A stretch of 35,575 nucleotides of DNA from a virus (Duplodnaviria; Heunggongvirae; Uroviricota; Caudoviricetes): IMG/VR virus record IMGVR_UViG_2579779007_000007; one strand, 5' to 3'. Shown one piece after another: positions 584-12,489 of the stretch (within the stretch, counting starts at the first letter, position 1; the number at the start of each line of letters is the position of its first letter). A program made the position numbers and the translations under genes. The notes beneath the pieces were generated by a model that saw only the letters and a list, made by a program, of their open reading frames with translations, made no database searches and had not been told where the DNA came from.

Positions 584-1363
584 TTACTCTGCGTCTACCA
601 TGTCACATGCAAATTGAGTGTGTTTATATTCAGAATCAAATTTTGGTTCAATTACTTCAAGACGCATGTCACCTTTTTTGCTTACCCAGATGTTATAAGT
701 GTTAACACGTCCAATAGCATCCTGTTTGGATTTACCTTCCATTGCGTTTGGATTCTCTTTAGATGGCTTGAGACTTGATTTATAAACATCATACTTGTCG
801 GAATACACAAAAGATACAGGAACATCGTCTACCATTTTGATCTTAAGTTTACCGCCGTTATTATCAAAAGTTTTGTTTCCGTAGAGTTTATCTTTTACAG
901 CTTCTGTTTCCTCACCATCGATAACTTTCCATGTAAATTTTGTAGTACATGCGTAAATCGCGGTAACATTCAGTTTCTTTACTTCTTCCTGTTTCGGTTG
1001 TTCTTCTTCAATCTTCGCAGAAGTCTCTGAATCGCTCTCTGACGCGGTTTCTTCTTTAGATAATACATTCATCAAGTTTTGGATTTGAGCGTTGTATACA
1101 GCCTCCAGTGGCTGAATCTGCCCGATATTGATCATTGTATCACGAACAGTTTTATTCCAGTTGCGTTGCTCTTGTTTAAGAGACGGATCAATCTTAACAG
1201 CCTTAACATATACTTCATGAAGTTTAGAATCCAGTGCGGAGATTGACTCATTAGCACAAATAAACTTCTCTGATTTGGTTATAGCCTTAGTGCAATCAAA
1301 GGACGCAGCATCAGCACCGAAAGCAGTAGCAGAAAGCACGATAGCAGCGATAATGTTTTTCAT
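584..1363 (-). CDS. secreted protein with N-terminal DUF1311 (LprI-like, lysozyme-inhibitor family) domain and an unknown C-terminal domain
   Basis: 259 aa ORF with signal peptide MKNIIAAIVLSATAFGADAA. Motif C..A.T..E..IC...L..LD..L...Y followed by QR.W...RD is typical of DUF1311. RBS AGAGG upstream. Confidence 0.5.
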   Translation of the reverse strand: MKNIIAAIVLSATAFGADAASFDCTKAITKSEKFICANESISALDSKLHEVYVKAVKIDPSLKQEQRNWNKTVRDTMINIGQIQPLEAVYNAQIQNLMNVLSKEETASESDSETSAKIEEEQPKQEEVKKLNVTAIYACTTKFTWKVIDGEETEAVKDKLYGNKTFDNNGGKLKIKMVDDVPVSFVYSDKYDVYKSSLKPSKENPNAMEGKSKQDAIGRVNTYNIWVSKKGDMRLEVIEPKFDSEYKHTQFACDMVDAE

Positions 1364-2532: not shown

Positions 2533-2706
2533 ATGGATCTTTTTGTCTACTTTGCTACTCTGCTGTTTTTGACTATCGTCGCTGGCATTAAATTGATTTT
2601 TATATCGCTGGTGGTGTTTTTCAAATTTCTAATCGGTACGCCTTACGGCTGGGTATGCTTCTTTTTGTTTATTCTTTTTAGTTGCTGTAAAAAGGATACT
2701 AAATAA
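2533..2706 (+). CDS. small membrane protein (57 aa, two predicted TM helices)
   Basis: Manual translation MDLFVYFATLLFLTIVAGIKLIFISLVVFFKFLIGTPYGWVCFFLFILFSCCKKDTK, with AGAGGA 7 nt upstream. Confidence 0.35.
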   Translation: MDLFVYFATLLFLTIVAGIKLIFISLVVFFKFLIGTPYGWVCFFLFILFSCCKKDTK

Positions 2707-2966: not shown

Positions 2967-2992
2967 GGGACTCTTCGGAGTCCCTTTTTTTT
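2967..2992 (+). terminator. intrinsic terminator, possibly bidirectional
   Basis: GGGACTC-ttcg-GAGTCCC hairpin followed by eight T. It abuts the stop codon of the minus-strand gene 2991..3233. Confidence 0.6.
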
Positions 2993-3233
2993 ATGCAACA
3001 ATTCGAAGTGTAAGTTTCTTATGTTGTGTAGGTTTAGTTTCATTTCGCCACTCAGGGAATACATGATCCATCATAACCGCATTAGTCTCATCAATCAGCT
3101 TTAAGGACTTTCTCAACGCCTTATTATCAGCTTTAAGAGTTTTAATCTCTGATTCCATCGCTACCATTCTTTCTTTCATTTTGGTAATTTCTAACATCAG
3201 ATTACCCAGAAATTCTTTGTTTTGATTCATCAT
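2991..3233 (-). CDS. hypothetical coiled-coil protein (80 aa)
   Basis: ORF with RBS GAGGGGTGAA. Heptad-rich sequence. Lies 16 nt downstream of the 333-aa gene on the same strand. Confidence 0.45.
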   Translation of the reverse strand: MMNQNKEFLGNLMLEITKMKERMVAMESEIKTLKADNKALRKSLKLIDETNAVMMDHVFPEWRNETKPTQHKKLTLRIVA

Positions 3234-3248
3234 AGATTCACCCCTCTA

Positions 3249-4250
3249 TTAAGCTGCGTATGCGTAGGCGCTGTAGTTGGTGTCGTAGATAGCGTCATGC
3301 AGTGCCATCTGTGCTTCGCGGATCTCGTCTTCGTTTACTTCAATCTCTTCTTGTTCTTCTTCGGTATCTTCCCAAGTGGTTTTGAATTTAGCCATAAAGT
3401 TATTGCGCAGGGATTCAAAGTTAGTAACAGGTGCGGATTTTTCTTCAACCGGAACTACTACCGGATCAGCTTCTTTCTGTTCTTCCTGTTCTACTTTTTC
3501 ACCATTACCCCAGCGATAGTTAAGGAGTTCTTCCAGTTCTTCATCAATGGATTTTTCTTCAACTGCTTCAACTTCAACCGCTGCTACTTCGAAAGTGGTT
3601 TCCTGTGCTGCCAGTTCAGCTTTCAGAGATGCGTTTTCAGCTTCCAGTTCAGCAATGCGTGCTTTCAGTGCTTCAACTTCGGAAGATTCAACCACTGCAA
3701 CTTCTTCTTTAACTTCTTCAACTACTACCGGAGCAACTTCTTTCTGTGCTTCTTTTTTGCAGAAGAAGGAGGAAGTAACCTGTAATGCGTGGTTGTAGAA
3801 GGAACCGCCTTTAGCGGTGTTAACAGTACCAGAAACATCCTTTACAGTGGATTCGGTAGCAACAGTACGGAAGCGTTTTGCGACTTCCTGGGTCTCTACG
3901 CCGTATTCGTTACGCTTGCTCTTGTGATGCATTACAGCACGGAAGCCGGAAGCAGTTTTAACAACAGCCAGATAGTAAGTTTCATCGGCTTTAACAGCAC
4001 GAGCGAAGCAATAAACGGATTCACCTTCTACCAGTGTAGGTTTAACGTGACGTTTGTCGAAACGGTTAGTGATCTGCCATTCAGCACCGTCTTTGATGCC
4101 AGCATTCTGACGCATTTCGGTCAGAGTCTTACCGGATACTACTTCAAAGGATTTGTCTTGTTTGCTTGCTTTACCTTCCATGACGGTAATGTTCAGTTTG
4201 CCGTTGGATTTAATAAACAGGTTGAAGGTGATGCGCTTAGAATTTTTCAT
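3249..4250 (-). CDS. hypothetical protein: N-terminal globular domain, central coiled coil (EALKARIAELEAENASLKAEL), acidic C-terminal region
   Basis: 333 aa ORF with RBS GGAG. Coding-like composition. No family recognised. Confidence 0.6.
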   Translation of the reverse strand: MKNSKRITFNLFIKSNGKLNITVMEGKASKQDKSFEVVSGKTLTEMRQNAGIKDGAEWQITNRFDKRHVKPTLVEGESVYCFARAVKADETYYLAVVKTASGFRAVMHHKSKRNEYGVETQEVAKRFRTVATESTVKDVSGTVNTAKGGSFYNHALQVTSSFFCKKEAQKEVAPVVVEEVKEEVAVVESSEVEALKARIAELEAENASLKAELAAQETTFEVAAVEVEAVEEKSIDEELEELLNYRWGNGEKVEQEEQKEADPVVVPVEEKSAPVTNFESLRNNFMAKFKTTWEDTEEEQEEIEVNEDEIREAQMALHDAIYDTNYSAYAYAA

Positions 4251-4295
4251 TTATAAATACTCCTGAATGCTGTGTTAGTTTTAATTGTTCATATC

Positions 4296-4330
4296 AAAAG
4301 CCTCCTTGCGCCAACAGGGAGGCTTTTTTA
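4296..4330. terminator. bidirectional terminator-like hairpin between the 60-aa and 333-aa genes
   Basis: AAAA-GCCTCC-ttgcgccaacag-GGAGGC-TTTTTT: an A-run before and a T-run after the stem. Confidence 0.4.
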
Positions 4331-4367
4331 TTTTTAAAGCCATCATATAATTCTCAGTGAAAGGTTA

Positions 4368-4550
4368 TTACCAGACCTCGGCGGTAATCTTTACTTTAAT
4401 ATCATACTTCTTTAAGAGTTTGTGGAAGGTTGATTGATCAATACCTTCACCTTTAAACCATTCACCCATCACTACATCAGGTGTCAGTTCAAAATAACGC
4501 TTTGCCATTTCTAAAACGATTTCACGAGTGAACTTAACAGGTCGTGCCAT
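4368..4550 (-). CDS. small HTH DNA-binding protein (60 aa)
   Basis: Strong RBS AGGAGGA. Pattern FTREIVLEMAKRY...GIDQSTFHKLLKKY resembles IS/phage-type HTH. Confidence 0.5.
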   Translation of the reverse strand: MARPVKFTREIVLEMAKRYFELTPDVVMGEWFKGEGIDQSTFHKLLKKYDIKVKITAEVW

Positions 4551-4907
4551 CTTATATCCTCCTAAATCTGGAATAATGATTTCTTAAAAAAGAGCTTTTC
4601 GCTCTGAACAATTCTATTTATAAAATGTTTTTCGAAAAACCCTGTAAAACCACTGTATATCCGATCAGTGGGAGCACGAATTGCTAAAGAGAAGATTAAT
4701 AATTAATCAATTCGTACATTATTCAATCGAATAAGCACTGTATGTTTAGCCAGTTCTGTATGAATTAACAGTGAGTCAGGGGATTTTCAGAAGTGAACAA
4801 TCATTTCATGCATGTATTTATACACGAAAAAATCTTGCGTATCATCAATATGGGGATTGTTTCGAAAATTTCAACCCCTACCAACGAGAAAAAGCATAAA
4901 ATAATCC

Positions 4908-4921
4908 TTGACAGTTGTCAA
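4908..4921. promoter_or_regulatory. palindrome TTGACA-gt-TGTCAA (back-to-back -35-like hexamers or operator)
   Basis: Perfect 6-bp arms. A leftward -10 candidate TATGCT lies 17 bp away on the minus strand, positioned to drive the 4550-to-2991 cassette. Confidence 0.3.
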
Positions 4922-4969: not shown

Positions 4970-5095
4970 TGGCGGATAACGATTATCAACCTTTATAACC
5001 TATTATAGCACGGCGACCTTTTGATAATTCTTTTTAAATCATGCATTTACGGCGGTTTTTGGTGATTTTCTGGTTAAATAATATACAAGAATTTT

Positions 5096-5117
5096 CTATC
5101 AAAATTTTTGATGAAAA
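5096..5117. repeat. direct repeat copy 2: CTATCAAAATTTTTG-ATGAAAA
   Basis: See copy 1. This copy directly abuts the iteron array. Confidence 0.5.
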
Positions 5118-5118
5118 A

Positions 5119-5239
5119 CCTACACTACAAACCTACGCTTTAAAGGGATTGGCCTACACTACACTAGCCAGTAAACCTACACTATAACACCCTCAAACCT
5201 ACACTATGAAACCTACACACCTACACTAACCCTACACTT
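5119..5239. repeat. iteron array: about 8 direct copies of CCTACAC(T/G)(A/T) in about 120 bp
   Basis: Copies start at 5119, 5132 (variant), 5153, 5176, 5198, 5212, 5220 and 5231. Several spacings are 21-23 bp. Preceded by an AT-rich tract, inside a 1.27-kb stretch with no ORF of 60 aa or more. Confidence 0.7.
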
Positions 5240-5584
5240 CAATCTCATAAGTGTATGATCTTGAAAGACATTTCACCCCACAGACCATAGAATATAAAAT
5301 TCGAACTAACGTTCTCCTTTTTGCTCGTTTTCTCTCACTACGTTCAAGAAAGATCTCGCAAAAAGAATACGGCGTAGCCGTGCGCGAAGCGCCCATCAAC
5401 ACCTTCTAAGACCTGCAAGCAGGATTCGAAAGGGATTGGATAGTTCGCTTCGCTCACGTTCACGCCTACGGCGTTCACTCGCTTTTGAAAGGATTTTCTT
5501 AGAAAGGGATTTAATACTAGTTACTAACTGATTCTAGTAAACGAACGAAGTGAGTAACAATCACTTTCTAGAAAGGTATTGGTT

Positions 5585-5613
5585 ATCCCTTCGGGATTGC
5601 AACCTTCGGTTGC
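5585..5613 (+). other. two tandem GC-stem hairpins with TTC(G) loops (candidate structured RNA element)
   Basis: ATCCC-ttc-GGGAT immediately followed by GCAACC-ttc-GGTTGC. No clean T-run follows. Confidence 0.35.
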
Positions 5614-5817
5614 TAAATTGCTTCCTGATTATTATTTCTCCAAAAGAAAGATTCTTATATTCTAAAGATACTTCTTCGTTTTGATGATGATTTAATCAAA
5701 CCATGAAGGAGGGCTTTAGCCCGACTGAATACAATCACCTTTCATAATAACAAGAATTTTCTCTTTATAAATAATAGTGAACTTACTTGATTCACTTTCT
5801 TTTAGAGGATTTCCACT

Positions 5818-6285
5818 ATGAACCATAAAATGACTACCACTACTCCTTTTATCCTTCTGGGTCTGGATTCTGATAGCTTCCACAATGACAAGTTAATGAA
5901 GATGTTCCGTGAACGTGGTTATAACATCCTTTTCAACTCTGATGAATCCCATTTCTCTAGTGCATGGTATGCGTTTTACCGTAATAAGAAGCCGACCATT
6001 GTAGTTAACTGCTTCACCGATGAAGAACGCTTAAAGTACCAGGATCTACCAGCAATTATTGTCCGTGATGATCTGCCGTTTCAAGTCCGTTCCGGTGACA
6101 TTGATCTGGGTAGCTTCGTTACTGTCTATGAACTGGATGAAGCAATGTTTAACTACGGCAAAGAAACCGCTCAGGAAGCCCCAGAAGAAGATGAACAAGA
6201 CGAAGATGACGACGACTACGCACCAATCTGTTTTTCTTCTCAGAATGGCTTCTACGGTTACGACGAAGGCTTAGATATGCTGTAA
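5818..6285 (+). CDS. hypothetical acidic protein (155 aa)
   Basis: RBS AGAGGA. N-terminal alpha/beta-like segment (PFILLGLDSDSF...), then a strongly acidic stretch EEDEQDEDDDDY. Confidence 0.55.
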   Translation: MNHKMTTTTPFILLGLDSDSFHNDKLMKMFRERGYNILFNSDESHFSSAWYAFYRNKKPTIVVNCFTDEERLKYQDLPAIIVRDDLPFQVRSGDIDLGSFVTVYELDEAMFNYGKETAQEAPEEDEQDEDDDDYAPICFSSQNGFYGYDEGLDML

Positions 6286-6554: not shown

Positions 6555-6580
6555 GATAAAAACTTCTTATAAATAAAATT

Positions 6581-6602
6581 GTTCCGGTGATGCTGCCGGA
6601 AC
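6581..6602 (+). promoter_or_regulatory. perfect hairpin GTTCCGG-tgatgctg-CCGGAAC just upstream of the Rha RBS
   Basis: 7-bp perfect stem with no T-run after it, so possibly an attenuator, processing site or protein-binding palindrome. Confidence 0.3.
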
Positions 6603-8492: not shown

Positions 8493-10400
8493 ATGAAACT
8501 GATTTCTAATAAGGCAAAATTAAAAAAGATTCTCAGAAATGCAGCCAAATATATTACGCCACCGCCTAAACTCCTTCCATCGGAATGGTGCGAAGCGAAT
8601 CTAACGCTAGTCGATGGTCCTCGTGCTGGGGATAAAGTTAAATTGCTGTCATTTCAGAAAGGCATGATTGATGCTCCTTTCCTTGAGAAGAAAAAGAAGT
8701 ACGTTTTTTGTACGAGTGCGCAGATCGGAAAGACGACCATCATGTCAGGGATCATGTTTAACCAGATGGCAAACGATCCGTGTAATATCATTATCGGGCA
8801 AAGTACCGCTAAAGAAGTGGCTATGTACTTGAATACTAAGATCCGTCCTTCTATTGAAGCATGTCCGGCATTACAGGAAGTGGTAACAGATAAGAATGAT
8901 CGTAATGCGGTAAACAACAATAACCAGATTCAGCTAAAAACAAACCATTTCCTTTACATGGTTTCTTTGACCAGTCCTTCAAGTTTGCGCGGGCGTACTG
9001 CCAAGTTAGGGATTGTAGACGAATGCGACGCAGCAACAATCACCGAAGAAGGTTGCCCGGTGGCACTAACTGCAAACCGTTTAACTACCTTTGGTGATGA
9101 AGCTCGATTGATTGTTTCTAGTACCCCGACCAATAAGCTGGGAATCATTAACCAGCAATGGTTATCAAGTGATATGCGTATGTTTTTTGTTCCGTGTCCT
9201 CATTGCGGGGAACACCAGGTGATCGAGTGGGAAAACGTTCAATTTGAATGGCGTAACATTGATGGTAAGAACTTACCCGATCCTGATACCGCTCGTTATA
9301 TTTGCCCCCACTGTAAGAACGCATGGACAGAAGGGGAACGAATCAGGGCAGTAGCGCAAGGCGAGTGGAGAGCAACCCGTGAAAGTGAAGTAGCAGGATT
9401 CTGGATCAGTCGTCTGTATTCACCTTTCAGCACGATCCGCGCTTGTGTGGTTGATTTTAGTCATGCGTGGCAATCCTTTGATTTACAATCCTTTTTTAAC
9501 ACCGTGTTAGGCAAGGTATACGACGATCAGGACACGGCAGTAGAAGCAAATGAACTGGAACAACTCAAAACAGATGTTTCTATCGAGAATATCCCTGATG
9601 ACGTGATTTTCTTGTGTGCGGGTACTGACCAGCAATTAGATCGCGCAGAAACTACGATCATGGGCGTGGCAAAGGATAAGATTTATATTCTGGATCACCG
9701 CAGCTTTTACGATCATAACTGTGAACGATATGAATCACCTGTATGGGATAGATTAATCAACTTCCATAAAACCAAATTTACTACTGTATCGGGTGATCGT
9801 GTTCCTATGCTCGCCAGCTTCCTTGATACATCGAACGGTCGATTCACTCAAGCTGGATACCGTATTTGCGGCAAGTGGAAGAACTTACACGCTATCAAAG
9901 GTAGTTCTGCTGGTAACGCTCCGATCATTCCGGTTAAACCTACCCGCACAGGTGGTCATGAATTGCTTATGCTGGGCGTTAACGTTGGGAAATCCGCTGT
10001 TCGTGAAATGCTGGTTAGAAACCTGAAAGATAATCCTCATATTGGCTTAGAAATATCAGAAACCATTCCTGATGATTATCTCGATCAGCTTTTGAGTGAA
10101 TCCATCAAGCGTACTACTACTGGCGTGCGTTGGGTGAAAAATCCAGGTAGTACCCGAAACGAGGCTCTCGACTGTCTGGTTTATAGCTATGCTGCTTCTC
10201 GCTACGTTCTTTCAAAAATGTCATGGGATAAACTCATTGCAATGAAAGACAGCTTAAACCGTGTTGTCGAAGAATCCGTAGAAGCTCCTAAATCGCAATC
10301 TGACGAGCAAATCGAAGAAAATAAGCCAATCACACGACCACAACGTAAAAACATCGCCAGACGCCCAAATAGAGGCCGTAGCTGGGTAACATCGTTCTAA
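8493..10400 (+). CDS. terL: terminase large subunit, lambda gpA family
   Basis: 635 aa. Recalled gpA-family blocks: [45 protein letters not shown]. Confidence 0.9.
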
Positions 10401-10472
10401 TAACTCGCCGTCCTTCGGGGCGGCTTACTCCTAAATATTGTTAATCCAATAACAATTAAATAAGGGGTAATT

Positions 10473-10967
10473 ATGAGTTTAGAACTAATTCCCTTAGTAA
10501 TTCGTAAAGGTGAAAAAATCACGCTGGCGAATGAAGAGGGTGTAACAATTCAGGTAGGAAATAGTAAAGGTATCATTTATCAGGTTGATGATACTCCGGC
10601 TAATCATGAGATTAAAACCTTAGATTTTGCCGAAGGTAAATATACCATCGTAACCACTTTGGAAGAAGAACTGGTATCAATGCAGGAATTAACTGTTTTA
10701 CCAGTATTCGCCAAACAATCCAAAAAAGAATATCTGCGGGAAACTATCGCCTTAATCGAGCAAGTTATTTTCGCCCGTTTATCTGGGGACGAAGCCGCAT
10801 TATCTCAAATGACAGTGAAAGGGAATACTTTCGCCTATGAGTCATTAGGTGTTCTCCAGCAATTAAAGACTGATTATGAACGTCAGTTATCAAAATTAAT
10901 TCAAGCCGAACGACGTAAACAGGGAATTAGCCCGATTAAAAATATTAAAGTACGTCTTACGCGATAA
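10473..10967 (+). CDS. hypothetical head-associated protein (164 aa)
   Basis: Sits between terminase and portal, with the AAGGGGTAAT-type RBS common to the late genes. Confidence 0.55.
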   Translation: MSLELIPLVIRKGEKITLANEEGVTIQVGNSKGIIYQVDDTPANHEIKTLDFAEGKYTIVTTLEEELVSMQELTVLPVFAKQSKKEYLRETIALIEQVIFARLSGDEAALSQMTVKGNTFAYESLGVLQQLKTDYERQLSKLIQAERRKQGISPIKNIKVRLTR

Positions 10968-10977
10968 GGGGTAAATC

Positions 10978-12489
10978 ATGTTTAATCTTTTTCGACGCAA
11001 AAAGGCGGTAGAAACTCCAGTTAAAACTAATCACCGCCAACAACAACCAAAAATTTTCATCGACAAACAAGTAGAAAAATTTCAGAAAGATTTGTCTAAG
11101 CGTTCTTTGGGCTTAGTCGGTGATCGAATTGATGGGCAGCTTCAACAAGATACTATCACCGGAACGTTCAATAAGGCTCTCAAATCGAACGGTAAGCGCC
11201 TTTATGATCAGGGTCGTACTCTGGCCTTAAACACTTCCGTAGGCAGTCGATACACGCAATACATCACCGATATGGTGGTAGGTACTGGCCTAGATCCGAA
11301 GCCGTCAATCGTTAAATCAAATGGCAAACTTGATAGCGCACTGAATAAGCAGATCGAGAATGCTTTCTGGAAGTGGGCGCAGAATGCTAAACGCTTCTCT
11401 CGTAACGGTCGCTTTAACTTCCGTGAATTGCTGGTAATGGCTGAACGTGAGCGCGTTATGGGTGGTGAGTGTTTCATCGTTTTAACTAAAGAAAACAATG
11501 AGTTAAATGTTTCTATCCTGTCTGCTGATAAGTGCGACTGGACTCTCAACCGTGAAGTGAGCAAAGAACGTGCGATATATCAAGGTGTGGAGTATGCCGT
11601 AGAAACGATGAAGCCCGTGGCATACTGGTTTCGTAAAGTCAACCTACTGACTCAGACCTACACTGGTGATAACTATCGCGTCGATGCTTCGCAAGTATGC
11701 CATTATTATCAACCGCTTACCGCCGAATCCCTGCGTGGTGTGACTGACTTCCTGCCAGTGATTAAGGATATCGCACATCAAGATGCATTCCGCGAAACTG
11801 CGATCATCCAGAAACGCATTGCAGCTAGCTCTATGGGCTTTATCGAACGTCCGAAAGATTCTGGTGACGATTTTGATACTGGTGAAGAGGATGAACAATA
11901 TCAAGCGCCGGAAGTAGTACAGGACTTTGCACCGGGTACTATTCAGGAATTGCCGGAAGGGGCAACGATTAAGTCAATTCAGAGCGCCCAAAGTGGCGAT
12001 GACTTTAACAGCTTCAATGATGCGATGTTTACTAGCGTATCAATGGGCTTAGGCGTGTTTAAACAGGGCTTAACTGGTGATACCAGCCAGATCAACTACA
12101 GCGCAGCCCGCTACGGCGAATTGCTTCAACGCACACGAGTTAAAGCACTGCAAAACAAATTAATTGAAACAGTGGTATTGCCAATTTTTGAAGCATATCT
12201 ACGCCATTATTCCGCGCGTGGTATTGTTCCGATTCGTATTACTGCAATTCCGCATATTATCGACAACACTACTATTATTCGTCCGCGTTTTGAATCCGTC
12301 GATCCTATTAAAGACGTAAACGCTGATATTGCTTTAATTGATAAAGGACTTAAATCACGTACTGCCGTTATATTAGAACGTGGTGATGATCCTGAAAAAG
12401 TATTCTCAGAGATTCAAGCCGAAAAGAGCGCACTAAATATTATCGTTGATGGTGAGGGTGAAGAAAAAAATTCCCCAGCCGATCCCTAA
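10978..12489 (+). CDS. portal protein (lambda gpB-like)
   Basis: 503 aa, position after terminase, C-terminal block resembling lambda-type portals. Confidence 0.8.
   Translation: MFNLFRRKKAVETPVKTNHRQQQPKIFIDKQVEKFQKDLSKRSLGLVGDRIDGQLQQDTITGTFNKALKSNGKRLYDQGRTLALNTSVGSRYTQYITDMVVGTGLDPKPSIVKSNGKLDSALNKQIENAFWKWAQNAKRFSRNGRFNFRELLVMAERERVMGGECFIVLTKENNELNVSILSADKCDWTLNREVSKERAIYQGVEYAVETMKPVAYWFRKVNLLTQTYTGDNYRVDASQVCHYYQPLTAESLRGVTDFLPVIKDIAHQDAFRETAIIQKRIAASSMGFIERPKDSGDDFDTGEEDEQYQAPEVVQDFAPGTIQELPEGATIKSIQSAQSGDDFNSFNDAMFTSVSMGLGVFKQGLTGDTSQINYSAARYGELLQRTRVKALQNKLIETVVLPIFEAYLRHYSARGIVPIRITAIPHIIDNTTIIRPRFESVDPIKDVNADIALIDKGLKSRTAVILERGDDPEKVFSEIQAEKSALNIIVDGEGEEKNSPADP

Follow-up and report, generated by a model that had tools for sequence, protein, structure and literature searches.

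The minus-strand gene cassette at positions 2991–4550 of IMG/VR record IMGVR_UViG_2579779007_000007 has, in our estimation, an even chance of being a type-specific lysogeny/lysis switch module, built around a repeat-binding regulator that is controlled by ClpXP. The record, a 35,575-nt stretch of Caudoviricetes DNA that we refer to as the window, is a single complete prophage of ~35.2 kb inserted in hicB of Escherichia coli. The cassette, read from the minus strand, consists of p60 (4368–4550), the first gene of the operon, which encodes a protein of 60 amino acids (aa), a gene for a large protein of 333 aa (3249–4250), and p80 (2991–3233), which encodes an 80-aa coiled-coil protein. These three open reading frames (ORFs) had been delineated in an initial annotation made from the sequence alone; their lengths and coordinates hold, and the same three coding sequences, all annotated as hypothetical proteins, are found on the chromosome of E. 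coli CE0007a, which is 99.9% identical there.

In the mechanism we propose, the large protein would bind a type-specific array of direct repeats through a basic, hypervariable N-domain; the array has the leftward promoter of the cassette on one side and, on the other, the rightward arm with Rha and the structural genes. The protein would oligomerize by a leucine zipper, and its long acidic tail would end in an ssrA-like -AA degron. The p80 protein, by means of a tail resembling the part of SspB that binds the ClpX N-domain, would tether the complex to ClpX(P), and the DNA-bound regulator would thereby be continuously degraded or remodeled. Such turnover would account for the high synthesis capacity of the gene—i.e. 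codon adaptation at the level of ribosomal proteins and consensus-grade promoters—because the regulator is proposed to be short-lived and produced at high flux. The most likely role of this circuit would be a type-specific (heteroimmune) lysogeny/lysis switch, with an origin/initiator pair nearly as plausible.

Evidence for the binding of repeats by the N-domain comes from relatives of the module, which we collected using p60 as an anchor (26 IMG/VR prophage loci, several E. coli chromosomal loci, and loci from Salmonella, Proteus, and Edwardsiella; individual loci are given below by L or P numbers). The large proteins of these loci fall into at least six discrete types whose N-domains are unalignable or barely alignable, and the layout of N-domain, zipper, and acidic region is common to all. 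Types A and C have the second half of the N-domain in common (hhalign probability 87%, E = 3.7e-6), and types A and B only the C-terminal motif LHDxxYxTN[YF]S. The window carries type A and, at 5116–5238 (minus strand), an iteron-like array of ~8–9 direct repeats with the sequence (A)GTGTAGG(T/G)T, spaced by multiples of ~11 bp. All repeats have the orientation of the cassette and lie upstream of its promoter; the array itself is 600–900 bp upstream of the cassette, beyond the coordinates considered in the initial annotation. The word AGTGTAGG is found 8 times in the window against 0.52 occurrences expected, with 6 of these inside the array, and GTGTAGGTTT occurs 14 times at ≤1 mismatch against 2.05 expected.

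Each type has a repeat of its own, and arrays across types consist of 5–19 direct repeats phased at ~11 or 22 bp. Specifically, GTGTAGG accompanies type A (13 E. coli loci and Salmonella L040–43, with A-like proteins 66–75% identical), CAGGGGCAA type B (12 E. coli loci and Salmonella L044 and L047), and CGGGGA, in 13 copies, type C (2 E. coli loci). Type D has 14–19 copies of CTAGGGAT (Proteus L037 and Salmonella L045/46), type E the repeat TTCRRATGCY (Edwardsiella L039), and type F GTGGAATCCGG-like repeats (Salmonella L048). In ~40 loci, the repeat sequence tracks the N-domain type of the large protein with no exceptions.

Other genes of these phages do not follow the repeats. The TerS-like protein is ≥88% identical across types A, B, and C and shows no co-variation with the repeats, and two TerL alleles (58% identical), o155, Rha, and the p60 alleles all assort independently of repeat type. 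Even the p60 gene, which lies between the repeats and the large gene, is 98.9% identical at the DNA level between a type-A and a type-B locus, and Salmonella L043 (A) and L044 (B) have an identical p60 protein. In locus L020, repeats and large protein are both of type A but the leader is that of type B. As the pairing of repeat and N-domain holds despite this recombination of other genes, we infer that the basic N-domain is a putative sequence-specific DNA-binding domain that recognizes the repeat array. Two sets of recombinants show, at the level of sequence, that repeat specificity goes with the N-domain and not with the C-terminal half: L047 has a B-like N-domain and AGGGGCAA repeats with a quite different C-terminal half, and the Proteus and Salmonella type-D proteins have the N-domain and repeats in common but not the C-terminus.

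Inverted exact copies of GTGTAGGTTT are also present within the 333-aa and 80-aa genes (4034–4043 and 3026–3035, plus strand). Both encode Lys-Pro-Thr and are kept in E. coli type-A loci; because they are absent from Salmonella type-A genes, they are probably a coincidence of the codons for these residues.

The proposed link to ClpX comes from the C-termini of the second-gene products and of their partner large proteins. The second-gene products are otherwise divergent coiled coils that end in P-x-L-R-[ILV]-V-[AGS]-COOH (>20 distinct sequences, 47–100% identity). In E. coli, the p80 end is ...KKLTLRIVA, close variants have ...KKPTLRVVA (PTLRVVA in L020), and the 333-aa second-gene product of type C has ...ARPTLRLVA; in Salmonella, the ends are ...KKPSLRLVS, ...IPKLRLVG, ...IPKLRIVA, and ...KRPALRIVA (RPALRIVA in L047). 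The C-terminal peptide with which E. coli SspB docks on the ClpX N-domain is RGGRPALRVVK-COOH (PMC3983244). The p80-family tail and this SspB XB peptide thus present the same motif in the same register from the C-terminus, a resemblance of sequence only, and we estimate from amino-acid frequencies that a match at one given C-terminus would arise by chance with a probability of ~4e-6.

Large proteins that have a small gene downstream (E. coli and Salmonella types A, C, and D, and L047) end in Ala-Ala, e.g. ...TNYSAYAYAA, ...LLDFAA, ...VQILKAA, ...EAIRRAA, and ...VRRAA, and those without a small gene end in ...SYCQ (type B), ...SFMQ (L044), ...KNVA, or ...SMFA. In the ssrA tag, AANDENYALAA, it is the ALAA end that is bound by the ClpX pore (PMC8512704; PMC9963277). 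The sequence of L047 shows the putative degron and the small protein traveling together, independently of the N-domain. Given the SspB-like tails and the Ala-Ala ends of the partner proteins, we propose that p80 is a phage-encoded analogue, not a homologue, of SspB, and that it would link ClpX to the large protein, either free or in complex with DNA.

The likeness to the E. coli SspB/ssrA/ClpXP system lies in the P-x-L-R-[ILV]-V-x tails, aligned with RPALRVVK in the same register, and in the apolar-A-A ends of the large proteins (...TNYSAYAYAA vs ...ENYALAA of ssrA). Outside their tails, the small proteins have neither the SspB fold nor any similarity to SspB, the 80-aa protein gives no SspB match in Pfam or NCBIfam (sub-threshold coiled-coil noise only), and they are phage-encoded proteins of 67–97 aa (333 aa in type C). 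They are predicted coiled coils and probably dimeric like SspB. The presumed substrate also differs, being a DNA-binding protein encoded immediately upstream rather than tagged translation products. A further step, which we offer only tentatively, is that the phages have evolved a non-homologous counterpart of SspB/ssrA in which a coiled-coil protein hands a repeat-bound regulator to ClpXP, so that the decision circuit, whether for immunity or for origin firing, would act as a high-flux synthesis–degradation timer that reads host ClpXP capacity and exists in at least six orthogonal types.

The large gene is apparently built for very high expression. A consensus scan places the cassette promoter, TTGACA-17-TATGCT, at 4921–4893 (minus strand), with the -35 element in the palindrome TTGACAGTTGTCAA (4908–4921); the initial annotation had read this palindrome as promoter-like, and it does supply, with one half, the -35 of a sigma-70-type promoter. 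The position is conserved, and relatives have better -10 elements: most type-A and type-C loci read TTGACA-17-TATACT, Salmonella has the perfect consensus TTGACA-17-TATAAT, Proteus has TTGACA-17-TAAAAT, and type-B loci have a tandem pair of perfect consensus promoters. The codon adaptation index (CAI) of the large gene is 0.70, the maximum of the prophage, compared with 0.21–0.50 among the remaining 28 ORFs, where the capsid and tail-tube genes each have 0.44; the E. coli weights of Sharp and Li were used, and the ranking is more robust than the absolute values. First large genes of other types are similarly adapted (0.62–0.64 in B, 0.64–0.71 in B-like, 0.56 in C, 0.59–0.61 in D, and 0.59–0.71 in Salmonella A), and p60 and the second genes have ordinary values of 0.23–0.38. 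The antisense plus-strand ORFs within the large gene (3222–3785 and 3789–4256) are taken as by-products of this biased codon usage.

In type-B loci (e.g. L009, 9490–9535), GTGTAGG also occurs at and inside the tandem consensus promoters, with one copy in the spacer of the first. These copies may be cross-regulation sites or recombination scars, and the sequence of L020 looks like that of a recombinant that arose at them.

The module is a core component of this phage family and not a sporadic accessory, since p60 and the large gene occupy the same place in every locus. Every locus that we fetched has p60 followed, after ~115 nt, by a gene of 305–394 aa, and many have a third small gene of 67–97 aa (333 aa in type C). 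The position of the first two is constant, between the TerS-like gene and a non-coding region of ~1.2 kb, both in the 27 loci of E. coli and in those of the three other genera. The features by which the initial annotation recognized an independent moron-like unit survive only in part. The cassette does have its own promoter, but we find no terminator of its own on the coding strand: the hairpins at 2966–2985, 2865–2881, and 4296–4327 have T-runs on the plus strand only. Nor is its presence sporadic, as not one of the 27 E. coli loci, nor any locus fetched from Salmonella, Proteus, or Edwardsiella, is without the module; furthermore, it is tied to the upstream repeat array, and its GC content equals that of the remaining prophage.

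The phages in question are temperate, ~35 kb in length, and infect Enterobacterales; they have a serine integrase, insert in hicB or ycdX, and carry a terminase of the lambda gpA type. In the window, the left part comprises an LprI-like gene, a Nu1-like TerS (PHROG 57), the cassette, and a non-coding region of 1.27 kb, which is followed by o155 (a 155-aa ORF at 5818–6285), a 48-aa ORF, Rha, and two leftward ORFs. To the right lie the gpA-type TerL, the portal, a protease–capsid fusion, tail genes, and the endolysin, and then a large serine recombinase with a few small ORFs. Among the genes of the whole 35-kb prophage, neither a CI-like repressor nor a replication gene is recognizable. The locus is present in 63 of 5426 complete E. 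coli genomes (~1%), every time in the chromosome, and searches of phage and plasmid collections return no DNA or protein match to it.

A switch governing immunity is slightly favored over an origin with its initiator, although the sequence data do not separate the two. What tips the balance is that a hypervariable protein/site pair lies between divergent arms in a phage that has no other repressor, and that the UTME-9 genome, the sole such genome identified, harbors a type-A and a type-B prophage side by side. In E. coli and Salmonella type A, the last repeat of the array (CCTACA) takes the place of the -35 element in a weak promoter-like site, TATGAT, that faces rightward; this would be compatible with an immunity role, and the layout is like that of the Mu repressor. 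In Salmonella, a single repeat is found immediately past the cassette promoter, and type B has no equivalent overlap.

The Mu repressor (Repc) has an N-terminal DNA-binding domain, a zipper-like middle, and a C-terminal tail that sets its sensitivity to ClpXP, an arrangement that is putative here, and the Mu operator comprises ~9 repeated sites in a ~200-bp region between divergent promoters. The two proteins have no sequence similarity, however, and the present one is larger, with a long acidic disordered region and extreme codon adaptation; in addition, its phage does not transpose, has a serine integrase and a cos-type terminase, and would dedicate a gene to the adaptor. The lambdoid immunity regions (imm-lambda, imm434, and imm21) offer a second comparison, as these too are short hypervariable segments in mosaic, near-identical phages, where a DNA-binding protein varies jointly with its cognate sites, these sites separate two arms of divergent transcription, and two types can be co-resident in one genome. 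They differ in that no cassette protein has an HTH_3 or S24 domain, no Cro-like partner is identified, and 5–19 direct repeats with only marginal repeat/promoter overlap stand in place of 3 dyad operators.

Several observations weigh against a ClpXP-controlled switch. Repressors and initiators are, as a rule, low-abundance proteins, and a CAI of 0.70 is unusual for either; turnover would account for it only indirectly. The link to ClpX is drawn from short C-terminal motifs, and since type B, the Proteus type-D locus, and type E have no small protein, the adaptor cannot be essential to the module. The pairing rule is broken by L048, where the small protein has a weak motif (...TMRLSVA) and the large protein ends in ...GIRRFK instead of -AA. 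AlphaFold models the 333-aa protein poorly (pLDDT 46.8), and the model has no fold match. Moreover, the co-varying repeats and gene are only ~1 kb apart, so that linkage contributes to their association, and only a modest number of recombination events can count as truly independent. The 1–3 copies of GTGTAGG at the promoter of type-B loci are not explained by the proposed mechanism, and in strain BS74R-D two places match the type-B gene, which could represent a homotypic double lysogen.

A possible, if doubtful, alternative is that the array is a replication origin and the large protein its type-specific initiator, which p80-recruited ClpX(P) would remodel or degrade. ClpX(P) is known to act in this way on lambda O, TrfA, and P1 RepA. 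The prophage has no other recognizable replication gene, its phased direct repeats adjoin the gene of their presumed binding protein, and the leucine zipper is reminiscent of the dimerization motifs of Rep proteins. Type-specific co-variation of N-domain and direct repeats, with types that are not interchangeable among mosaic relatives, is moreover the classical pattern of lambdoid O/ori and of iteron Rep systems, in which turnover or remodeling by ClpX(P), as proposed here, has its parallel as well. Against this, neither sequence nor fold places the cassette proteins in Rep_3, with lambda O, or in any other initiator family. The repeats are upstream of the operon and not within the gene, we recognize no clear DnaA box (the best candidate, TTATCCGCC, has 2 mismatches) and see no conserved AT-rich unwinding element beside the array, and the spacer between array and promoter varies from 0 bp in type B to ~200 bp in type A and ~550 bp in Proteus. 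Very strong expression signals also set the gene apart: its codon adaptation is atypical of initiators, and a consensus-strength, apparently constitutive initiator promoter would be dangerous in a lysogen unless repressed.

We regard it as unlikely that the cassette is a moron with a role in lysogenic conversion or anti-defense, in which, for example, the acidic half of the large protein would be a DNA mimic directed against a host defense or nucleoid protein and the repeats would serve autoregulation only. Its strong promoter and its orientation opposite to the structural genes would suit such a role, as would an accessory-gene neighborhood with the LprI-like gene and, in relatives, reverse-transcriptase–TIR or mcr-1 insertions nearby. 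The combination of extreme acidity, a dimerizing coiled coil, and high expression capacity is akin to Ocr-type or Gam-type mimics, and an arms race could have produced the hypervariable N-domain. Yet the module is in every relative across four genera, it has no match among PADLOC or anti-defense families, its GC content is not distinct, and its variation is coupled one-to-one with cis-acting repeats and not with host background. Least probable, in our view, is that the repeats form a cosB- or pac-like packaging site with the large protein as a packaging-specificity factor analogous to TerS, even though the order of its domains (DNA-binding, oligomerization, partner-binding tail) is like that of TerS/gpNu1, the TerS-like and TerL genes have between them a large non-coding region in which the array lies, and a lambda-cosN-like CGGCGACCT is present at 5011–5019, ~100 bp from the array. 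A separate Nu1-like TerS exists at 1722–2276, TerS and both TerL alleles are independent of the repeat type, the large gene is on the strand opposite the packaging/structural operon, and the cosN-like 12-mer is not kept in relatives and is absent in type B. CGGCGACCT matches cosN at 10 of 12 positions, but we discarded it as a lambda-like cos site beside the cassette, which would have made the cassette genes the first to reach a new host cell: by our own estimate, ~2.7 matches at ≤2 mismatches are expected per window by chance, against two found. From sequence, a GC-rich stretch at ~1500–1640, upstream of TerS, is the better cos candidate.

The absence of recognizable families, noted in the initial annotation, is borne out by searches of Pfam, PHROG, PADLOC, NCBIfam, and PDB sequences, in which p60, the 333-aa protein, and p80 have no match apart from sub-threshold coiled-coil noise. 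A scan of GTDB genomes with p60 patterns gave nothing, and we found no literature on these protein accessions or on phage SspB-like adaptors. Homologues of p60 number 38 and are confined to Enterobacterales prophages. Its designation as a helix-turn-helix (HTH) protein is plausible on the AlphaFold model (pLDDT 79.9), which has three helices (9–20, 28–35, and 39–48) and for which the top Foldseek matches are all HTH domains (NtrC4, DeoR, LsrR, Fis, and sigma region 4; TM ~0.45–0.5); these matches are non-significant (E > 2), and Pfam does not confirm the family. The suggestion that p60 is an autoregulated gatekeeper finds no specific support, as its alleles assort independently of large-protein and repeat types. 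The palindrome TTTCTAGAAA, considered as a p60 operator, is without enrichment in the window (30 matches vs 33.5 expected).

The layout first described for the 333-aa protein, i.e. a globular N-domain, a zipper-like segment, and an acidic tail, is upheld. Residues 1–170 form a basic, beta-rich N-domain with a net charge of +13, and residues 171–333 have a net charge of -33. The leucine zipper (~189–220) coincides with sub-threshold bZIP-like matches at 191–217 and with an AlphaFold helix at 189–247, and it is followed by a stretch of disordered, acidic sequence, then by the conserved C-terminal motif LHDxxYDTNY and the ssrA-like end. Only 6 clusters among 1.84 billion representative proteins match this protein. 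The C-terminal Tyr-Ala repeat (3249–3270) differs in length among strains (AYAYAA, AYAYAYAA, or AYAYAYAYAA; P0020 and L028), and the zipper has heptad-sized indels of +7 or -18 residues; the spacing of the putative degron and the length of the zipper therefore appear to change in a microsatellite-like manner across strains. In p80, a VFPEWR motif is conserved.

The promoter is followed by an untranslated leader of ~335 nt (4551–4886, minus strand). The block CTCTTTAGCAATTCGTGCT is kept in all E. coli and Salmonella leaders and holds a 13-mer (4681–4693) that resembles rrn boxA. An rrn/nut boxA is no more than a lead here, as TTCTCTTTAGCAA fits rrn boxA at 11 of 13 positions but 1.45 such matches are expected by chance, and Proteus and Edwardsiella are without the element; the adjoining hairpin is weak (-2.2 kcal/mol). 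Some 115–150 nt downstream of the promoter, the leader has a LexA-box-like CTGTTAATTCATACAG, CTGT-N8-ACAG (4756–4771), and a one-mismatch box (4740–4755). These sites are kept in type C and in type A, that of Salmonella included, are missing from type B, and lie away from the promoter; they belong to a larger inverted repeat, CACTGT...ACAGTG, so that they could alternatively form an RNA hairpin.

Further down the leader, a 27-nt box, AAAAACWTYTTATAAATARAATTGTTC, occurs at 4606–4632 (minus strand) and again at 6558–6584 (plus strand), i.e. upstream of p60 and of Rha in the same orientation. These are the only two copies in the window, with 0 expected, and they include a -10-like element, TAGAAT or TAAAAT. 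Its presence upstream of both p60 and Rha suggests a second, shared promoter or operator that would couple both arms. A small hairpin with a U6 tract (4605–4585, minus strand) directly precedes the p60 ribosome-binding site. It is weak (-6.7 kcal/mol), but it is the sole hairpin with a U-tract on the cassette strand, and it is kept in four genera with differing stem sequences.

The GC-rich hairpin between p60 and the large gene (4296–4327) was initially read as a bidirectional structure that could attenuate read-through. The hairpin is real and stable on both strands (minus, -17.8 kcal/mol, z = -3.0; plus, -19.9 kcal/mol, z = -4.2), and its 24 sequence variants include compensatory stem changes, e.g. 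T-A to C-G between Salmonella L040 and L041. It does not look like a good attenuator of the cassette: the upstream A-run, which is the T-run of the plus strand, is invariant, whereas the U-run that follows on the cassette strand has at most four U and can be absent. The element is thus a canonical terminator on the plus strand and weak or non-terminating on the cassette strand. After p80, two further plus-strand hairpins (2966–2985, with a T8 run, directly after the p80 stop, and 2865–2881; -14.1 and -13.7 kcal/mol) follow the same pattern, the first being a terminator for convergent transcription from TerS and small ORFs. Together with the 4296–4327 element, they look like insulation against convergent transcription, and the 4296–4327 hairpin may stabilize the cassette mRNA too.

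From the array to the start of the first gene that reads rightward, 570 bp (5250–5817, plus strand) contain no ORF and are densely filled with short GC-rich hairpins (TCCCTTCGGGA, GCAACCTTCGGTTGC, and GGGCTTTAGCCC). AGAAAGGGATTGG is repeated there at ~70-nt intervals, and part of the region is conserved out to Salmonella and Proteus. Sequences from relatives are too alike for informative covariation, and Rfam has no match in either the cassette region or the whole window; the region could represent a leader with RNA structure, or else a regulatory RNA. A comparable hairpin-rich region of 1.3 kb precedes a related TerL in the DCP80 record (L006, 1–1290). This TerL, the closest in the phage collection (43% identity), stands at the start of a 141-kb T4-like Gaprivervirus record of Escherichia phage DCP80 (PQ671644), and a gpA-type terminase at that place suggests a chimeric assembly or record.

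Other observations concern the left end of the prophage. The Nu1-like TerS matches PHROG 57 with E = 1.5e-11, and its Edwardsiella counterpart is a faint Phage_Nu1 match. The GC-rich stretch directly upstream (1500–1640), a candidate cos site, has imperfect dyad symmetry (CTAGCGCGGTTGCTACGCGACTA), and the distance from TerS to TerL, 6.2 kb, is unusual. After the TerS-like gene, two unannotated, very hydrophobic ORFs of 57 aa (2306–2479 and 2533–2706, plus strand), which may encode small membrane proteins, are closed off by the strong plus-strand terminators at 2865–2881 and 2966–2985. The LprI-like gene (584–1363, minus strand) belongs to a lysozyme-inhibitor-like family. Its 5' part (985–1369) shares 95–97% DNA identity with a hypothetical gene carried by virulent, T4-type phages that are RB49-like (Krischvirus), the sole match to the phage collection within the first 12 kb of the window, and the sequence indicates recent gene exchange between temperate and virulent phages. 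In Edwardsiella tarda L039, the prophage end that has the LprI-like gene in E. coli has instead a gene for a 543-aa reverse-transcriptase and TIR-domain protein, a defense-like cargo (9413–11044). In E. coli PE15 (L003, 1–3900), an ISApl1-mcr-1-pap2-ISApl1 colistin-resistance transposon is situated directly downstream of the type-B large gene, and the TerS/LprI end is replaced.

If our reading is correct, the N-domains would constitute a new family of DNA-binding domains in which six or more pairs of protein and site occur naturally and are apparently orthogonal, of use for the study of specificity evolution and as parts for synthetic biology. The p80 family would represent a phage-encoded tether to ClpX in which nothing of SspB but its short tail is imitated, i.e. 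a clear case in which a virus regulator is wired to a host protease by a linear motif. It would also explain how the life cycle is controlled in a 35-kb temperate phage without recognizable repressor or replication genes. Some "ORFan morons" near prophage ends can thus be core regulators, with cis-acting partners that lie beyond the coding cassette. As such, the module would be a control module of known kinds that is built from unrecognized protein families, with a link to ClpXP that is testable.

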